This document shows, in pieces, positions 10,399 through 64,000 of a DNA stretch of 64,000 bases; the stretch's first letter is position 1; each line of letters starts with the position of its first letter. The position numbers and the translations under genes were made by a program. Source of the stretch: Candidatus Uhrbacteria bacterium RIFCSPLOWO2_01_FULL_47_17 (GTDB taxonomy: Bacteria; Patescibacteriota; Patescibacteriia; UBA9934; GWF2-40-263); assembly GCA_001791305.1 (NCBI GenBank), contig MGEI01000005.1:44488-108487 (forward strand). The letters run 5' to 3'. Below the pieces are notes generated by a model, which saw nothing but the letters and a program-made list of their open reading frames with translations, searched no databases and was not told where the DNA came from.

Positions 10399-11340
10399 TT
10401 ATATTCGTTTACGAAACCATTCGACGGTCTTCGCGAGTCCGTCATCAAACTTGGTCTTAGGTTCCCAGTCGAGAGCAGTGCGCGCCTTGCGCGCGTCGAG
10501 AACACTTCGCATCACTTCGCCCTTCGCGGGTTTGCCGTGTTGTTCTGGTAATTTGTACCCAATCAATTTCGCGAGTTTCTTGAATACCGTATTAATATCT
10601 GTTTCTCGACCTGTGCCGATATTAAACTCACCAACCACATTCTTTTGCGCCGCGAGCAAGTTCGCGCGAACAATATCACCCACATAAACGAAATCACGTG
10701 TTTGTTTTCCCGTTCCGTTGATCACAACCGATTTGCCTGCAAGCATTGCTGTTGCGAACATCGAGATCACACCCGCTTCGCCTTTTGCGTTTTGTCGTGG
10801 ACCAAAGACATTTGCATAACGAAGGGCGACGTAAGGCACGCCGTGAAGTTGGTGCATGAACGCAAGATACATTTCGGACGCACGCTTAGAGATTCCATAA
10901 GGCGAAATCGGCTGTGCGGGAATCGTTTCAGCATACGGCATTTTTGCTGTTTCTGGATACATCACTCCCCCGCTCGAGGAAAACACAATCTTCTTCACGC
11001 CGATTTCTTTCGCCACACTCAAAATGGCGAGAAGGCCCATGATGTTTGTCTTTGCATCCTCAACCGGATTCTCTACAGACTTGCGGACGTTAATCTGCGC
11101 CGCCAAATGAAAAATCACATCCGGCTTCACTTTTTTGAGATAGTCAACAAACGCGGGCGCGTTCACAGAAAGTTTCGTGAAACTCGCATTCGGATTCACG
11201 TTCGACTTCTGTCCGCTCGACAAATCATCGACAACATAAACTTTGATGCGCCGTGAAACGAGCGCATCCACAATGTGCGAGCCGATAAAGCCGGCGCCAC
11301 CGGTGACGAGAGCGGATTTGAATTTCATATACTGTGTCAT
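10399..11340 (-). CDS. NAD-dependent epimerase/dehydratase (UDP-glucose 4-epimerase GalE-like, SDR family)
   Basis: N-terminal Rossmann motif TGGAGFIGSH and catalytic YxxxK (PYGISK); 313 aa. Confidence 0.85.
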   Translation of the reverse strand: MTQYMKFKSALVTGGAGFIGSHIVDALVSRRIKVYVVDDLSSGQKSNVNPNASFTKLSVNAPAFVDYLKKVKPDVIFHLAAQINVRKSVENPVEDAKTNIMGLLAILSVAKEIGVKKIVFSSSGGVMYPETAKMPYAETIPAQPISPYGISKRASEMYLAFMHQLHGVPYVALRYANVFGPRQNAKGEAGVISMFATAMLAGKSVVINGTGKQTRDFVYVGDIVRANLLAAQKNVVGEFNIGTGRETDINTVFKKLAKLIGYKLPEQHGKPAKGEVMRSVLDARKARTALDWEPKTKFDDGLAKTVEWFRKRI

Positions 11341-11435
11341 TCCGACCGAGGAGTCATCGACGAGTGGAGGAATCTTGCGCTTTTTAAACGTGGGATCCCT
11401 CGGCTGCGCTTCGCTCCGCTCGGGATGACAGAAAA

Positions 11436-12564
11436 TTATTCTTTATTTTCCTTTGCGAATCTGTCTGACTTCCCAAGCTCTCTTCGAAGATACGCTTCCA
11501 TAAACGGCTCAAGTGCGCCTTCGAGGACTCCTTCTGCATCCGTCGTCTCGTAATCGGTTCGGTGATCCTTCACGAGTTTATACGGATGAAGCACGTAACT
11601 GCGAATTTGATTTCCCCATTCGGCGGATTGATAATCGCCACGTAATTCCAGCTTTTGTTTTTTTTGTTCTTCGAGTTTGAGTTGATACAATTTTGCGCGC
11701 AGAATCTTCATGGCGGTTTCTTTGTTTTGCAATTGCGAACGTTCGTTTTGACACGCAACCGCAATTTTGGTCGGAAGATGGACGATGCGCACCGCCGAAT
11801 ACGTTGTGTTCACGCTTTGCCCTCCTTTTCCTCCCGAGAGATACGTGTCGATACGCAAATCTTTTGGATCGATTTCGAGATCTTCGATCTCATCGAGTTC
11901 TGGAATCACCTCGACAAGCGCGAATGTTGTGTGACGCATCTTCTCTGCGTCGAAAGGAGAGATGCGGACGAGACGATGAACACCCGCTTCGGACTTGAGA
12001 TATCCGTACGCATATCGACCCGTCACGCGAACCATCACACTTTTGATACCGACATCCTCGGCTCGAGACTCGTCGAGAATCGTCATCTCGAATCCTTTTT
12101 GTTCCGCAAAACGCGCATACATACGAAGAAGCATTTGCGTCCAATCTTGTGCCTCTGTTCCTCCGCTTCCTGCGTGGATCGCAAGAATCGCGGTTGTGTC
12201 GTCATGCTCGCCCGAGAAGAGGGTAGTGAATTCCATTTTTGAGAAGCGCGCTTCGAGCGCTTCGAGCTTAGAAGCAATCTCATCATGCATCGAAGTGTCA
12301 TTATTCTCATCACCAAACTTTGCGAGTTCGAGAAGCTCATCGACCTCAGCAATGAACAATTCCCAAATTGAAAGTTCACTTCGAAGATCCGCGGCGTGTT
12401 TGCTCACAGTCTTTGCGTTTTGTGTGTCATTCCAAAAATCCGGAGCGGCCATTTGCGCTTCAAGCGCGGCCACCGTTGTTTTTACGGTATCAAGGTCAAA
12501 GTAACCCCCACGTTCGAAGAGCTCGATCGCGGAGGGCTTGGATTAATTTCAGCAACTCTTTCAT
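11436..12564 (-). CDS. prfB: Peptide chain release factor 2 (PrfB) with programmed +1 ribosomal frameshift
   Basis: SPF and GGQ motifs in the main ORF (11436..12473). The upstream frame starts at ATG 12564 and reads MKELLKLIQALRDRALRTWGLL up to the CTT TGA C shift site preceded by the SD-like GGGGG. The +1 frame then continues as DLDTVKTTVAALEAQMAAPDFW. Confidence 0.9.
12493..12501 (-). other. prfB +1 frameshift site (CTT TGA C preceded by the internal Shine-Dalgarno GGGGG)
   Basis: Read directly on the minus strand: tgggggttaCTTTGACc. Confidence 0.85.
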
Positions 12565-21077: not shown

Positions 21078-21189
21078 TGTAGATACAGATTACAGATCAA
21101 TACAGATGAAGATGATGCAAAACAGATAGTGCAAAAAAGATCTGTCGTCCACTATCCCTATCTGTATTGATCTGTAATCTGTATCTACA
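21078..21189. repeat. 30-bp perfect inverted repeat with a 52-nt spacer in the nusA leader; arms built from TACAGAT heptamer repeats
   Basis: Left arm 21078-21107 is tgtagatacagattacagatcaatacagat. Right arm 21160-21189 is its exact reverse complement. Confidence 0.7.
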
Positions 21190-38761: not shown

Positions 38762-38838
38762 GGGGATGTAGCTCAGCTGGTTAGAGCTCAAAGCTTATAC
38801 CTTTGCGGTCGATGGTTCGAGTCCATCCATCCCCACCA
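38762..38838 (+). tRNA. tRNA-Ile (anticodon TAT/UAU), CCA encoded
   Basis: Acceptor GGGGATG/CATCCCC, D-arm AGCTCAGCTGGTTAGAGCT, anticodon stem CAAAG/CTTTG with loop CTTATAC, T-loop TTCGAGT. The TAT anticodon would read AUA. Confidence 0.75.
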
Positions 38839-59950: not shown

Positions 59951-61133
59951 TTGCAGACATTTGAATACAACAGAACAAAGCGGCGTCGGAGAGTACACCA
60001 TTCAACTCCTCGGCGCGCTTTTTGAATTACAATCTTCGGCGGCGTCTGGGGACACCACCCATAACAGAGAACATGAATATGTCTTGCTCACGACGGGACG
60101 AGAGACACCGGAACTGCTTGCGATCTTTCGCGCGCGCACTTCCCCGTCGTTTGTGTTTCCATCGTTTGTAAAACATACGCACGTTCCCATCGCAAACAAA
60201 TTTTTGAATGTGAAATTGCTTTTGATGAAACAACCCACACTCAACTGGCTCGTTAAAGATGAAATTGATCTCGTGTTTCTTCCGAACATAAACATCACGG
60301 TCCTTCCAACAACCATTCCAACCGTGCTTACGGTTCATGATGTCTCGTGGAAATTTTTTCCGGAATTTTTCTCACACAAAATGCGTGCGTGGCATCATCT
60401 TCTCGACGCACACAAACTCATCGGCCGCGCGCATGCGATCATCACACCATCGACAACGACAAAGAACGATGTCGCGCGTGTCTTTCACAAATCCCCAGAC
60501 GAGATCACAACCATTCCGCACGGTGTCGCTTCGAACTTTCATCCAAAAATGGAAGCACACGACCACGGCGTTCGTTCGAAACTCAAACTTCCAAGACGCT
60601 ACGCTCTATTCGTAGGAACGATCGAACCGCGAAAAAATGTTTTGTCGATCATTGAAGGAATGAAACGTTATCGCGAAATGACACACGACGATCTTCACCT
60701 CGTCCTCGTCGGTAAGTGGGGTTGGAAATCGCACAGCATTCGCCGCAGACTTTGGAAGCGAGACACGCAAGGTTGGGTGCATAATCTCGAGTACATCAAT
60801 CCGCGCGATCTGCCGGCCGTTTACCGATCGGCCAGCGTTTTCCTCTGGCCATCATTCTATGAAGGCTTCGGATTACCGATCCTTGAAGCAATGGCGTGTG
60901 GAGTTCCTGTAATCACGAGTAACATCTCGAGTATGCCGGAAGTGACGGGCACAAGCGCACTCCACGTCGATCCATTTAACATCCAAGACATCGCCGACGC
61001 CTTAAAAGGCGTCATTCCGCTCCAACCCCTCCATGAACAGCTCAAAAAAGGCGGCCTCGAGCGCGCAGCGGAGTTCACTTGGGAAAAGGCGGCGGAACAG
61101 ACGCTTGAAGTATTTAAGAAATCCACCAATTAA
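59934..61133 (+). CDS. Glycosyltransferase family 4
   Basis: EGFGLPILEAMACGVPVITS motif. Its start overlaps the previous GT4 gene by 17 nt. Confidence 0.85.
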   Translation: MRILVDCRHLNTTEQSGVGEYTIQLLGALFELQSSAASGDTTHNREHEYVLLTTGRETPELLAIFRARTSPSFVFPSFVKHTHVPIANKFLNVKLLLMKQPTLNWLVKDEIDLVFLPNINITVLPTTIPTVLTVHDVSWKFFPEFFSHKMRAWHHLLDAHKLIGRAHAIITPSTTTKNDVARVFHKSPDEITTIPHGVASNFHPKMEAHDHGVRSKLKLPRRYALFVGTIEPRKNVLSIIEGMKRYREMTHDDLHLVLVGKWGWKSHSIRRRLWKRDTQGWVHNLEYINPRDLPAVYRSASVFLWPSFYEGFGLPILEAMACGVPVITSNISSMPEVTGTSALHVDPFNIQDIADALKGVIPLQPLHEQLKKGGLERAAEFTWEKAAEQTLEVFKKSTN

Positions 61134-61290
61134 TTGGTGGATTTCTTAACATTCTCGATCAATTCATGCTCATACATCTTCTTCAAAGCATGTAACACAA
61201 CAGCGACTCTATTTTCAAAACGACCAGATTCCACCATAGAGTCGATAAAGGCTTCAAGTTGTGGAGTGAGTGAAATGGAAAGTGTGGACA
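61130..61290 (-). pseudogene. ParD/RHH-type antitoxin-like gene, frame-disrupted (apparent 1-nt deletion), orphan
   Basis: The ATG frame reads MSTLSISLTPN, then stops. The +2 frame continues LEAFIDSMVESGRFENRVAVVLHALKKMYEHELIENVKKSTN to the stop. Together they match the ParD pattern (SL.P.L.AFID..V.SGR). The break is at the CCAAAC run near 61258. Confidence 0.45.
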
Positions 61291-61431
61291 TATAAGTTAG
61301 TTTAACATGAAATTATCGTATTTTTCTAGAGTGTTCGTTAGCTATCCATCTTCCTTCCTTTTCAACCCTTTCCGCCCTCTCCGCCATTTCCACATTTTCG
61401 CTAAAATGAGTAAATTTACTGCGCTCCACTC

Positions 61432-61460
61432 TTGACAAAATCCCAAAAAAGTGGTATAGT
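61432..61460 (+). promoter_or_regulatory. Strong extended -10 sigma70-type promoter
   Basis: TTGACA, 17 nt, TGgTATAGT. Confidence 0.6.
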
Positions 61461-61466
61461 GAGGAG

Positions 61467-61690
61467 GTTAAAAGTCAAAAAGTCGCTGTGTCCTTCACAA
61501 CCTAATGGGGAGAGAGCTGTGCTATCCAGTCCCACTCGAAGATAGCAAGGAAAGTAGTTAGAAGTTCGTAGTTAGGTCGGAAAAGGTTCCGAAAACCCTA
61601 ACTTCAAACTACCAACTACCAACTTCTACTTTTCCAAAACCGATGTTTGAGTATTTCTCGTGAAGTATTTGAACATCGGTTTTTCTGTTA
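61467..61690 (+). ncRNA. Candidate structured leader/small RNA with intrinsic terminator (function unknown)
   Basis: A long imperfect hairpin, ggaaagtagttagaagttcgtagttagg...ccctaacttcaaactaccaactaccaacttctacttttcc, is followed by a terminator hairpin (ccgatgtt...aacatcgg) and TTTTT, ending 45 nt before the next ATG. Confidence 0.3.
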
Positions 61691-61738
61691 ACAGGTCGAA
61701 TAACAAAGCTGCACAAAGTGCGGTGAGGAAAAAATCAA

Positions 61739-62032
61739 ATGGGTTGGATCATTTTCATTGTGGTTGCATTCATGGTTTCCACTGTGATTGCGAATCTTGT
61801 CTCAGAGAATATCAAAAGCCAAGCGGCGGATCTGACGTGGAAGGGTATCCCGCGGAGGACGACGGAACATCAGGCGGTCATCGCATTCGTCTGGACGTCG
61901 ATCGTCGCCTTTTCGATCTTGATGGGCGTGGGCTACATGTTCACGCATATCGAGTCCGTTGGAGAGTCAACGACCTACCTTAGCTACGACGAGCAGGTCA
62001 ATGACGGACACGTCATCTACACCGGCAATTAA
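61739..62032 (+). CDS. Small hypothetical 2-TM membrane protein
   Basis: RBS GGTGAGGA 8 nt upstream; 97 aa. Confidence 0.55.
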   Translation: MGWIIFIVVAFMVSTVIANLVSENIKSQAADLTWKGIPRRTTEHQAVIAFVWTSIVAFSILMGVGYMFTHIESVGESTTYLSYDEQVNDGHVIYTGN

Positions 62033-62037
62033 TTTTT

Positions 62038-62150
62038 CCCTCTCACTTAGCTTGCGCAGCGAATGAGAGACTCGCTCTTTGACACATTCTCGACCTGCCC
62101 GCAGCTGCTTCACAGCTGCGGGACTCGACACCGCCCGTCATTTGCGAATG
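62038..62150 (+). repeat. Inter-ORF structured repeat, copy A (hairpin cccgcagctg-CTTCA-cagctgcggg at 62097-62121)
   Basis: Shares ccctctcacttagc, gaatgagagactcgctctttga.aca, the hairpin and gactcgac with copy C, and the core with copy B. Confidence 0.7.
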
Positions 62151-62218
62151 TCGCACATGGTGGTCGGTCTGAGGAAGCACACACGCTCGGCGAATTCGCG
62201 GAGCAAGAGGAAATTGAA

Positions 62219-62512
62219 ATGGTCACCAAGGAATGTGTCTTCAAGGCAATTGAAGCGATTGCCGATTTCGTGCATGAACATCATGGACATTTGATGGTCC
62301 AAGACGTTGCGCGGCTGACGCTTGCGTTGCGGGAACAGTCGCACTTCGAGTGCGTCATCGGCGTTCCGGGTCTCTACTCGATCGACGCCGGGACGACCAA
62401 GCAGATCGTGCGCGTGCGTATTTATCAGGGTGTGCACTCGAACGAACTGACCGACTCCCTGATCGCTCGCATCCTCGACGGCAACGCCTGGACGCACGAT
62501 GTGTCGCAGTAG
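62219..62512 (+). CDS. Hypothetical protein (GC-rich island)
   Basis: ATG preceded by GAGGAAAT. The track's longer 5' extension is a translation of repeat A. Confidence 0.45.
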   Translation: MVTKECVFKAIEAIADFVHEHHGHLMVQDVARLTLALREQSHFECVIGVPGLYSIDAGTTKQIVRVRIYQGVHSNELTDSLIARILDGNAWTHDVSQ

Positions 62513-62640
62513 TTCTCGACTTCGCGTCGGAACTTCGCTCTTTGAAACAATTTCGACTTGCCGCCAACAGCTTCACTGTTGGCGGACTCGACTTCGTTCA
62601 TCACCTCCGATCGCCGGATGTGTGGTGCGCGGAGCAGAGT
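62513..62640 (+). repeat. Inter-ORF structured repeat, copy B (hairpin ccgccaacag-CTTCA-ctgttggcgg at 62560-62584)
   Basis: Conserved tcgctctttgaaaca, hairpin geometry, and gactcgacttcgttcatcacctccgatcgccggatgtgtggtgcgcg. The stem sequence differs from A and C by compensatory changes. Confidence 0.7.
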
Positions 62641-62730
62641 CTGGTTCTGTGTTATAGGCGGGGTCCCCTGACCCCGCGAGGTTTGCACAACAACCGCCCG
62701 CCCAAGTTTGGGTCGGCAACAAGGAAAAGC

Positions 62731-63513
62731 ATGTTCCATTTCGGAAAGTCAAAGTCGAATCCCATTCACGACTCGAGGAAGCCTGTCCGCGAGGACGCCT
62801 TCGAAGTCCCCTGGACAGATCGTGAGGACGACATGGAAATCGACGACAACGTGAACTACGGCGTGCGGCAATCGCTGCGCAAGAACCGCAAGTTGAACGC
62901 CCAGATGAACATGAACACGAAAATCACGGAGCTGCAGTGGATGTTCCGGATGAGCTATGCGGAGGCCGTGAAGATGATCGCCGACGTACAGCGCGACAAG
63001 CCGAAGCGGACGCGCGAACAGCGCAGCGACCTGTACCTCGAGTCGAACCCCGACGGCGAGGACAAGATCGCAGCGCTCAAGAAGCGCTACGCCAGTCGGT
63101 GCCTCATCCGGTACTTCATCAACAAGGCGCACAACAGCTTCACCTGGAAGAACTCGAACCGCACGGCGAACAGGCAGTGGAACCGCCACGAGCCGACCGT
63201 TCACGTCCCGTGGACGATCGGCGAAGAGACGTGCGCGACGTACCTCGTGCAACAGCGCGAAGACGAGCAGGAACGGCACGAACACGCCATGTACATCGCT
63301 CGCGAAATGGAGCGTGAGAATGAGCTCGAACTCGCCGCTGCCCGTTGGGACGCGGCGCTCGAAGCGGAAATGGACGCATTCAAAGAACTCGAGCGTCGCT
63401 ACGACAAGGGCAAGTGGTGCCTCAAGCTCGACACCAAGCCCGATCTCGATCGGATCGACGTGTTGGAGCAGCACTTCGACAGCGGCGCCAAGGTCTACCG
63501 GCACGCGGCCTAG
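62731..63513 (+). CDS. Hypothetical protein (GC-rich island), charged/coiled-coil rich
   Basis: ATG preceded by AAGGAAAAG; 260 aa. The upstream part of the track ORF overlaps repeat B and the previous gene. Confidence 0.5.
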   Translation: MFHFGKSKSNPIHDSRKPVREDAFEVPWTDREDDMEIDDNVNYGVRQSLRKNRKLNAQMNMNTKITELQWMFRMSYAEAVKMIADVQRDKPKRTREQRSDLYLESNPDGEDKIAALKKRYASRCLIRYFINKAHNSFTWKNSNRTANRQWNRHEPTVHVPWTIGEETCATYLVQQREDEQERHEHAMYIAREMERENELELAAARWDAALEAEMDAFKELERRYDKGKWCLKLDTKPDLDRIDVLEQHFDSGAKVYRHAA

Positions 63514-63527
63514 TTCCTTCAACAACA

Positions 63528-63650
63528 TCCCTCTCACTTAGCCTCGCGCGAATGAGAGACTCGCTCTTTGAAACAAAGGTCTGCCCGCAGCTGCTTCACA
63601 GCTGCGGGACTCGACTTCGAACATCACTTCCGATAGACGGATGTGGTGCG
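63528..63650 (+). repeat. Inter-ORF structured repeat, copy C (hairpin cccgcagctg-CTTCA-cagctgcggg at 63584-63608)
   Basis: Near-identical to copy A in the 5' half and to copy B in the 3' half (gactcgacttcgaacatcacttccgatagacggatgtggtgcgcg). Confidence 0.7.
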
Positions 63651-63681
63651 CGATGAGGGTCAACAACGGAGGAAGAAAAAG

Positions 63682-63990
63682 ATGAATGCCAGGCAAGCTC
63701 TCGAAAAGATTCGGGCGATCGATCGAGATCACAACCGAGCTTACTGGAACGATGTGGATCGACTCCTCAAGGAGTTCGAACCGGTGTTCGAGGACGATCC
63801 TGAAGGGTTCGAAATCAACATCGGTCGGGCCGCTTCGTTTCGCGTCTCACTGCGCAAAGGCGGATACCGCGTGCTTCGCTGGTCGCATTGGGCACACGTG
63901 TACGATCCGACGCCGATGGCCAACGAGGCAAATGCGACCGAAGTTTTCGACCGCATTCTCGAAGCCGTCACCGCGCCGGCTGCTGCGTAG
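63682..63990 (+). CDS. Hypothetical protein (GC-rich island)
   Basis: ATG preceded by GGAGGAAGAAAAAG; 102 aa. Confidence 0.45.
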   Translation: MNARQALEKIRAIDRDHNRAYWNDVDRLLKEFEPVFEDDPEGFEINIGRAASFRVSLRKGGYRVLRWSHWAHVYDPTPMANEANATEVFDRILEAVTAPAAA

Positions 63991-64000
63991 TTCAATCAAC

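Follow-up and report, generated by a model that had tools for sequence, protein, structure and literature searches.

A structured inter-cistronic RNA repeat with a boxA-like core in an ORFan-rich genomic island of Candidatus Uhrbacteria

The nut and rrn antitermination signals consist of a boxA sequence and a boxB hairpin and act through NusB-S10; by definition, a nut site joins a boxA-like sequence to a downstream hairpin with a conserved loop and a stem that may vary. The boxA of the lambda nut site is CGCUCUUA, and boxA varies between phyla. The early inter-cistronic RNase III sites of phages T7 and T3 are related irregular hairpins within one polycistronic RNA, and they are expected to yield stable, hairpin-ended messages. 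With respect to gene content, flexible (hypervariable) genomic islands occur in the cell-envelope polysaccharide loci of free-living bacteria. The bacteria of the Candidate Phyla Radiation have tiny genomes, and both gene regulation and gene acquisition are poorly known in them. In T4-type phages, promoter early stem-loop (PeSL) elements combine a sigma70 early promoter with a terminator stem-loop (PMC2839356, PMC4122927), and boxA shields untranslated CRISPR arrays from Rho (PMC7665894). Here we analysed 64,000 nucleotides of Candidatus Uhrbacteria bacterium RIFCSPLOWO2_01_FULL_47_17 (contig MGEI01000005.1, positions 44,488 to 108,487), hereafter the window, at the end of which a GC-rich island begins whose open reading frames (ORFs) are separated by a structured repeat. 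On the strength of their sequences, the RNAs of this island are rated as putative cis-acting inter-cistronic signals, the repeat forming an RNA family of its own and the leader being new as well. A preliminary description of the window had seen in it a possible undescribed system, and this view is supported: neither RNA matched Rfam, and no published description of the island or of its RNAs was found in the literature or in Rfam.

Looking at base composition, the end of the window clearly stood apart. In 1-kb segments the GC content was 56.0% (62001-63000) and 59.1% (63001-64000), as against 40-52% in the rest of the window; in 2-kb segments, 62001-64000 reached 57.6% (host mean 46.2%, standard deviation 1.9, z 5.9) and its tetranucleotide distance gave a z of 7.5. 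The GC-rich end block that the preliminary description placed from about 61.8 kb is confirmed by both measures, and the rise sets in at about 61800, within the first ORF. The window holds only the first 2.2 kb of the block, whose full length is 5.7 kb at 55.3% GC (about 8130 to 13850 of L001; L001 and similar labels denote loci or contigs, and L001 7751-7779 corresponds to window 61432-61460). About 3.5 kb more of island, with four repeat copies and eight ORFs, lie beyond the window end (L001 10310-13920), and the island totals 12 co-oriented ORFs and seven repeat copies. It is located between two GT4 glycosyltransferase genes, in a cell-envelope polysaccharide cluster that also encodes a Bac_transf sugar transferase and a DUF4012 protein, and its right end is the terminator ahead of the next GT4 gene. 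An assembly chimera had also been considered. The 102-aa ORF4 is present in 15 contigs of NCBI, ENA and JGI assemblies, several of which span both block borders, and over its last 8 kb the window does not differ from MGDW01000011.1 (GCA_001790825.1, Candidatus Uhrbacteria bacterium RIFCSPHIGHO2_02_FULL_47_44). Since several independent contigs cross both borders and synteny is found in diverged genomes, misassembly is excluded. The GC-rich block is a real, ORFan-rich accessory island at a fixed site in one Candidatus Uhrbacteria clade.

The part of the island that lies in the window is organized as follows (HP1 to HP3, hairpins 1 to 3; UTR, untranslated region; bits, covariance-model scores).

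61739-62032, + strand: ORF1, 97 aa, predicted membrane protein
62036-62174, + strand: repeat copy A, with HP1 62040-62069, boxA-like CGCTCTTTGACACA 62073-62086, HP2 62098-62122 and HP3 62122-62174; 121.4 bits
62185-62204: 5'-UTR hairpin after copy A
62219-62512, + strand: ORF2, 97 aa, no family match
62513-62641, + strand: repeat copy B, with variant HP1 62513-62533, boxA-like CGCTCTTTGAAACA 62536-62549, HP2 62561-62585 and HP3 62585-62641; 97.2 bits
62657-62677 and 62694-62717: two hairpins after copy B
62731-63513, + strand: ORF3, 260 aa, a very narrow family found in five islands
63527-63661, + strand: repeat copy C, with HP1 63531-63558, boxA-like CGCTCTTTGAAACA 63562-63575, HP2 63584-63608 and HP3 63608-63661; 138.2 bits
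63682-63990, + strand: ORF4, 102 aa, no family match
from 63991, + strand: repeat-free spacer after ORF4; its full 57 nt are L001 10310-10366

Three repeat copies thus stand between four ORFs, which confirms the alternation of ORF and structured repeat first proposed along with the distinct composition. The copies themselves were correctly recognized, whereas their dimensions had to be revised: the core is about 125 and not 110 nt long, its first hairpin lies 0, 7 or 17 nt past the stop codon, and between its end and the next start codon lie 20-89 nt, an interval occupied by further hairpin modules. The untranslated spacers measure 170-260 nt, and the extra 5'-UTR hairpins are situated just upstream of each ribosome-binding site. 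A covariance model trained on 15 repeat copies matched the window at 62036-62163, 62499-62626 and 63527-63649 (97-138 bits, E 4e-24 to 5e-35), and found no other convincing copy on either strand of the remaining 61 kb. The further copies for which a search had been suggested were found in the rest of the L001 island and in the islands of relatives: the model detected three copies in the window, seven in L001, four in L086 and four in L088, without exception within islands and in the orientation of the ORFs. It is highly improbable that the repeat is a selfish miniature element (MITE- or REP-like) spread within foreign DNA, or an assembly artefact. Such an element would be repeated, structured and intergenic, as observed here, but the copies have no terminal inverted repeats and no consistent target duplications, show a single orientation, do not occur in the 61 kb of the window outside the island, and keep their architecture in hosts that share no more than 65-86% identity in the flanking gene; for the artefact, independent contigs and synteny exclude a chimera.

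The 25 distinct copies share a common plan: HP1, a single-stranded motif, a short spacer that sometimes contains an inserted hairpin, HP2 and HP3. HP1 is usually CUCUCA...UGAGAG around a small stem with the loop YUCGC, alternative stems being present in some copies. The single-stranded motif between HP1 and HP2 is CGCUCUUUGAAACA, with the consensus ACUCGCUCUUUGA(A/C)ACA. While the stems drift, hardly any variation is seen in the HP1 and HP2 loops or in the single-stranded GCUCUUUGA. HP2 has a 10-bp stem and a CUUCA loop that is kept in about 20 of the 25 copies; at least 12 different stem sequences occur, all of them pairing, and the stem of copy B is fully compensated. In the alignment of the 25 copies, which was fitted to the model, 94.7% of the HP2 cells were paired, 10 of 10 pairs were changed on both sides and 53 cells were compensatory; none of 500 shuffles did as well, and slid controls gave 28-41%. 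An independent RNAalifold run on a MAFFT alignment found compensatory change in 8 of the 10 HP2 pairs. HP3 directly follows HP2. It is closed by (G)ACUC/GAGU(C), followed by an inner stem, a 2x2 internal loop, CAUCAC/GUGGUG and a variable tip; the inner stem is exchanged among CUUCG/CGAAG, CUCUG/CAGAG, ACCG/CGGU and UUCC/GGAA within the same architecture in 23 copies, where HP3 is an irregular hairpin of 12-21 pairs with internal loops in every copy. Scanning the window at the Rfam gathering thresholds, and 61100-64000 at E<=5, gave no match to the repeat or to the leader described below. A hammerhead-like or box C/D-like reading of CGAUGAG and CUCGAC in HP3 was rejected; the supposed core positions vary among copies and no Rfam ribozyme matched. 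The repeat defines a new family of structured RNA, strongly covarying and built around a boxA-like core.

Judging from its sequence, the three-hairpin element probably controls the read-through or the cutting of one long transcript. Its single-stranded motif resembles both the gamma-proteobacterial boxA GYTCTTTAANA and the Mollicutes sequence GTTCTTTGAAAAC. We take the Mollicutes sequence to be the spacer boxA of Firmicutes-type bacteria. GYTCTTTAANA is the published gamma-proteobacterial consensus (PMC5725501), and GTTCTTTGAAAAC a conserved sequence of the Mollicutes rRNA spacer (PMC4312986). Because this boxA-like sequence is accompanied by a conserved-loop, free-stem hairpin and by long, Rho-prone untranslated spacers, we ranked first the reading in which the repeat acts like a nut site in antitermination, with a probability of roughly 0.35. 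The boxA-like sequence and the conserved-loop hairpin would load an elongation or antitermination complex; RNA polymerase would then cross the untranslated spacers and express the whole array, and the flanking hairpins would delimit and stabilise the individual messages. Recombination between copies, by gene conversion or by duplication of an ORF plus its repeat, would be a by-product that keeps the copies alike and the array plastic. If antitermination of this kind takes place, the rRNA boxA of the host is expected to be GCUCUUUGAAAC in GCA_001790825.1 and GCA_026395055.1, and CCUUUGAGAC in the genome of the more distant L090 (ERZ19029624 scaffold_232). No rRNA operon is present within the 64-kb window.

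Several observations weigh against nut-like antitermination. A match to the Escherichia coli boxA consensus requires a one-base insertion, and the motif has drifted to CCUUUGAGACC in L090. The spacing between motif and HP2 is not fixed, with inserts of up to about 70 nt. We know of no precedent for seven nut-like sites in 4 kb. The first repeat copy lies downstream of the leader terminator and therefore cannot explain read-through at that point. The HP2 counts given above come from an alignment fitted to the model. As to the strand, HP1 is slightly more stable on the opposite strand and HP2 is equally stable on both. The case for the sense strand is thus carried by the folding of HP3, which was more stable on the + strand in 14 of 14 copies (-21.6 versus -16.0 kcal/mol), and by the invariable orientation of the repeats relative to the genes.

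A purely punctuating role, in which the repeat serves only for RNA processing and differential stability, is tentatively held to be almost as likely as antitermination, with which it is compatible. HP3 would then be a substrate of RNase III, or the A/U-rich CUCUUUGAAACA would be the cut site of an endonuclease of the RNase E, Y or J type; HP1 would shield the upstream message at its 3' end, and HP2 together with HP3 the downstream one at its 5' end, with the extra 5'-UTR hairpins also helping to guard the message ends. The irregularity of HP3 and its internal loops, found in every copy, suit such a role, as do the additional hairpins just upstream of each ribosome-binding site and the inter-cistronic, sense-strand-only position of the elements. 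In addition, the motif is the only A/U-rich unpaired stretch of the element, set between GC-rich hairpins, and the host has an RNase J gene nearby. What processing leaves unexplained is the near-invariance of the HP1 and HP2 pentaloops and of a 9-nt single-stranded sequence amid drifting stems.

We then looked at the putative transcription unit to which the repeats would belong. Upstream of ORF1, a promoter is followed by a structured leader.

61432-61460, + strand: sigma70-type promoter, TTGACA-17 nt-TATAGT with an extended -10 TG, 11/12 matches
61461-61695, + strand: structured leader or non-coding RNA of about 230 nt, minimum free energy -75.7 kcal/mol, z -5.55
61507-61533: leader core GGGGAGAGAGCUGUGCUAUCCAGUCCC
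61541-61548: leader GAUAGCAA, candidate pseudoknot partner
61559-61628: variable long leader hairpin
61637-61684, + strand: strong intrinsic terminator plus U run, the only strong + strand terminator reported by the scan

This promoter is the sole strong + strand sigma70 match in the 6.8 kb from the upstream to the downstream GT4 gene (L001 7400-14200), and it is conserved in L012, L086, L088 and L090. The promoter-leader unit could be aligned over five lineages, its other members being L012 1229-1492, L086 11190-11458, L088 5782-6012 and L090 11226-11560. A small stem of the leader changes in a compensatory manner (GCUG/CAGU to CCAU/AUGG), and the loop GCUAUC can pair with a downstream GAUAGC, the variants being ACUAUC/GAUAGU, GCUGUC/GACAGC and GCUAUC/GGUAGC. 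Because these loop and downstream variants compensate each other across lineages, they suggest a pseudoknot followed by a terminator, a riboswitch-like layout; a small RNA and a novel leader of the riboswitch type are both conceivable. A pairing of the leader sequence GGGGAGAGAG with CCCUCUCAC of the repeat was discarded for its wrong polarity. At the other end, a second terminator closes the island before the next GT4 gene; it is kept in L012, as read from the sequence. Altogether, the island looks like one sense-strand transcription unit. The processed polycistron, one of the options initially put forward, fits this anatomy, with co-oriented genes, one upstream promoter, no internal sigma70-type promoter and hairpins on the sense strand.

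The promoter data also bear on a quite unlikely explanation, namely that the repeats are promoters or terminator-promoter modules of the PeSL type, read by an alternative sigma factor or another polymerase, each cassette being its own transcription unit. Like PeSLs, the repeats flank ORFans in a hyperplastic region and recombine with one another (PMC2839356, PMC4122927), and four of the seven copies in L001 have a TTGACA within their motif. However, no -10 element follows 16-18 nt further on, no sigma70-type match is found inside the island, the promoters at both island borders are canonical host promoters, HP2 has no U tract, and no polymerase or sigma gene is present among the island proteins. 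An extracytoplasmic-function-type promoter reading of GGAACTT was rejected as well; this sequence is restricted to the HP1 variant that copies B and G carry.

Some features of the borders were recorded in addition. Very long imperfect hairpins, built of low-complexity motifs of 6-8 nt and with arms of up to 50 nt, occur at both island borders and at at least one other host site; their sequence differs with each site and lineage.

Long imperfect hairpins: window 61559-61628 and 21078-21189; L001 13930-14050; L012 1340-1420 and 11760-11860

In the interval that separates the upstream GT4 gene from the leader promoter, a 53-aa ORF on the - strand (61130-61291) resembles ribbon-helix-helix or ParD antitoxin proteins (PF03693, E 0.0012, just below the cutoff). 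It may be the remnant of a toxin-antitoxin pair, since L088 has at the same place a ParD gene and an 87-aa partner. A perfect palindrome of 18+18 nt (61114-61149), right after the GT4 stop codon and common to this convergent ORF, looks like a bidirectional terminator; the only Rfam hits by E value, two chance miRNA-like matches (mir-3012), fell on it. Elsewhere in the window, at 38762-38838 on the + strand, there is a tRNA-Ile with the anticodon UAU; most bacteria read AUA by means of a lysidine-modified CAU tRNA.

The genes between the repeats gave few clues. None of the four window ORFs had a significant match in Pfam, PHROG or PADLOC, and they are as devoid of recognisable domains as first described, but not all are small, given the 260 aa of ORF3. 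Among about 30 island proteins searched against the same three collections, only a sub-threshold STIV_B116-like match, a sub-threshold DUF7448 match and an HTH_3 match (the last gene of L012) were obtained, and a sequence search of the PDB with two proteins gave nothing useful. ORF1 is composite: since its first 25 or so codons are AT-rich and host-like and the remainder is GC-rich and island-like, the left composition border lies inside its reading frame. In L012 and L088 the island begins directly after the leader terminator, unlike this ORF1-internal border. ORF2 has a paralogue with flanking repeats beyond the window (L001 11354-11626). ORF3 belongs to the few partly conserved island genes; a search of 5.8 billion proteins gave only three remote homologues and one of 1.84 billion gave 13 cluster representatives, and its AlphaFold model, built on a four-sequence alignment, was poor (pLDDT 57, pTM 0.23). 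The island includes several small membrane proteins and two small basic proteins, and the islands of other lineages also encode an HTH protein, a presenilin-type peptidase and a MopE-like copper-binding protein. No island gene is better conserved than that of a 66-aa protein of pI 11.4 (89% nucleotide identity between L001 and L012), which forms only six 90% clusters in 5.8 billion proteins and is found at six loci.

66-aa basic-protein gene: L001 13142-13342; L012 5056-5256; L080 945-1145; L085 1473-1673; L086; L026

This protein, in a role like that of N in lambda, is the candidate for an unlikely scenario in which the elements are sites for an RNA-binding protein encoded by the island itself, which would set how far each cistron is translated or how stable it is, and define a private regulon. 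Conserved loops on free stems and the exceptional conservation of the gene are in keeping with it, but the argument is purely inferential, the protein having no recognisable RNA-binding domain, and the L088 fragment carries repeats and shows no 66-aa gene, though its contig is cut. A 122-aa island protein encoded about 0.8 kb past the window end (L001 10781-11149) accounts for the STIV_B116-like match (PF08960, E 0.0023, sub-threshold). The STIV_B116 family includes viral ring nucleases that act as anti-CRISPRs. Homologues 55% identical to the 122-aa protein are encoded on two IMG/VR contigs of 58% GC (L078 6365-6700 and L079 8001-8336), both of them without the repeat. Since one island gene thus has relatives on GC-rich viral contigs, an ultimately foreign or viral gene pool is possible.

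The same locus was then followed in related genomes. A homologue of ORF3 led to L012, a 10-kb block of 55-62% GC with 19 co-oriented ORFs between flanks of 44-46% GC, and further islands were traced through orthologues of the flanking GT4 gene. Islands between the same GT4 genes were found in L012, L026, L086, L088 and L090; homologous islands, 6-10 kb long, are present at this site in no fewer than six diverged lineages. L086, on a 339-kb Uhrbacteria contig with a GT4 81% identical, has a 7.7-kb island with four repeat copies, and L088 (GT4 86% identical) an island with four copies on a cut contig. In L090 (GT4 65% identical) the block of 6.4 kb is only slightly raised in GC and the element has diverged: at 11872-11995 and 12382-12495 it consists of CCUUUGAGACC, a hairpin, CACUCAAC and an HP3-like hairpin, and the covariance model gave 13 bits. 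This form, barely detected by the model, shows that the architecture predates the sequence. At the site in L091 (GT4 57% identical) there is no island and one opposite-strand gene. Pattern scans of genome and metagenome collections added only L026 and L054/L062 as new islands, so the repeat family is, as far as these scans reach, rare and confined to one locus in one clade. Among the genome contigs, 38 of 40 pattern matches were single chance hits and only L026 was real; among the metagenome contigs, the real matches were L054/L062 and L065 only; a match in the viral contig L011 was a chance one inside a gene. L026 (CAYHWG010000058.1) is a 5.8-kb contig binned as an uncultured Gammaproteobacteria metagenome-assembled genome with an Uhrbacteria-type island; it is probably misbinned, since the same GT4 gene follows its island.

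Comparing the islands, the variable gene content suggested by the preliminary description was borne out: 42 of 74 island ORFs from nine loci are singletons, and the ten shared families differ in order. Nucleotide identity between lineages was 65-80% for the repeat, 78-81% for the flanking GT4 gene, 53-56% for ORF3 and, as said, 89% for the 66-aa gene. Because the repeat has diverged about as much as the flanking GT4 gene, the island looks like an old resident that co-diverges with its host under fast gene turnover and not like a recent insertion; the horizontal acquisition at first envisaged is unlikely as a recent event. A mobile element is likewise not supported: the site is the same in all lineages, and neither flanking direct or inverted repeats of at least 10 nt nor 10-mers shared between the borders were found in three lineages. 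With the whole island as blastn query, phage and plasmid collections gave no match, and neither did phages when all island proteins of L001 were used in tblastn. A prophage or integrative element was accordingly set aside, the island proteins having no integrase, replication or structural domains and the locus no att repeats. In every lineage compared (L001, L012, L086, L088, L090) the island GC lies 6-12 points above that of the flanks, which could be due to biased gene conversion, to RNA structure being under selection or to ongoing exchange with a gene pool outside.

Traces of recombination are found within the array itself. In L003, otherwise 99.5% identical to L001, the central 30 nt or so of copy A match copies C and E, a stretch that on sequence comparison is a gene-conversion tract. 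A repeat-ORF2-repeat unit is duplicated in L001 (8356-8923 versus 11163-11736; 77.7% identity over 582 nt), and L008/L080 agrees with L001 in the left part of the island (96-99.5% identity), while the right part is replaced and the flanking GT4 gene is only 92% identical. The other apparent gene-content differences among L001-L008 were due to start-codon calls only, the DNA being 99.5-100% identical, and L008/L080 is the sole true variant. The modules are mosaic, as HP1 plus motif can precede other hairpins (L012 4435, L085 860, L062 7-91). From these patterns, the repeats are read as substrates of homologous exchange too.

Such plasticity recalls the integron-like cassette array first proposed, in which the repeats would be recombination sites of a DNA-level, site-specific system. 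Promoterless co-oriented ORFs alternate with repeats, gene content and order differ among lineages, the spacer after ORF4 resembles an "empty" junction, and copy C is bordered on both sides by a direct TCAACAAC. Yet the Pfam annotation showed no integrase or recombinase gene within 10 kb on either side (L001, L002, L086, L088) or among the island ORFs, and RYYYAAC...GTTRRRY pairs numbered 0 on both strands of the 5.9-kb island (1.0 +/- 1.5 in shuffles). Each copy folds into three local hairpins and not into one attC-type hairpin, the breakpoints observed are those of ordinary homologous events, and the island is tied to one chromosomal site. The cassette array was thus not borne out, and we consider a site-specific system very unlikely. 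A more speculative proposal, which we regard as doubtful, builds on nut-like antitermination: the island would be an "expression-ready gene nursery", that is, a fixed platform with one controlled, perhaps riboswitch-like, promoter and private nut-like modules. These modules would secure the read-through and processing of any ORF placed between two of them, and would supply the homology by which ORFs are shuffled, duplicated and exchanged. If this were so, it would be an integron-like solution without an integrase in bacteria with very small genomes.

The locus offers a new structured RNA family with a boxA-like core and a second new structured RNA in its leader. It is also a clade-wide hotspot of ORFan turnover at a fixed site inside a cell-envelope gene cluster, with a GC offset that persists over long divergence. 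Should the modules be multi-copy signals for antitermination or processing, they would illustrate how one promoter can serve many new, poorly adapted genes in a long array, and they would give access to testable Nus-type control outside the rRNA, phage and CRISPR contexts.

Compared with nut and rrn signals, the repeat has in common a GCUCUUU-type single-stranded sequence adjoining a conserved-loop, free-stem hairpin on the sense strand of a long transcription unit. These signals have one or two copies, whereas the island has seven in 4 kb, and each island element has three hairpins, a boxB-like stem of 10 bp with a CUUCA loop and a variable distance between motif and hairpin; no island protein was recognised as an N-like factor. 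With the T7 and T3 sites the repeat shares mutually related irregular hairpins that separate cistrons in the sense orientation, HP3 spanning some two helical turns, but it resides in a bacterial chromosome, and each element has an extra conserved single-stranded sequence and two more hairpins. PeSLs, too, border ORFans in a hyperplastic region and shuffle genes as sites of homologous exchange; the present element is larger and more structured, and no promoter match occurs inside the island. Integron arrays and clusters of attC sites lacking an integrase (CALINs) resemble the island in their promoterless co-oriented ORFs and in a structured repeat close after the stop codon. They differ from it in that the island has no integrase, no R''/R' core sites and no single imperfect hairpin, and is a fixed locus that has co-diverged with its host. 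Finally, as in flexible islands, a lineage-variable, ORFan-rich block occupies a constant position in a glycosyltransferase cluster; unlike in these, the island genes are not glycosylation genes, their GC lies 6-12 points above that of the host, and they come with RNA modules of their own and a dedicated leader.

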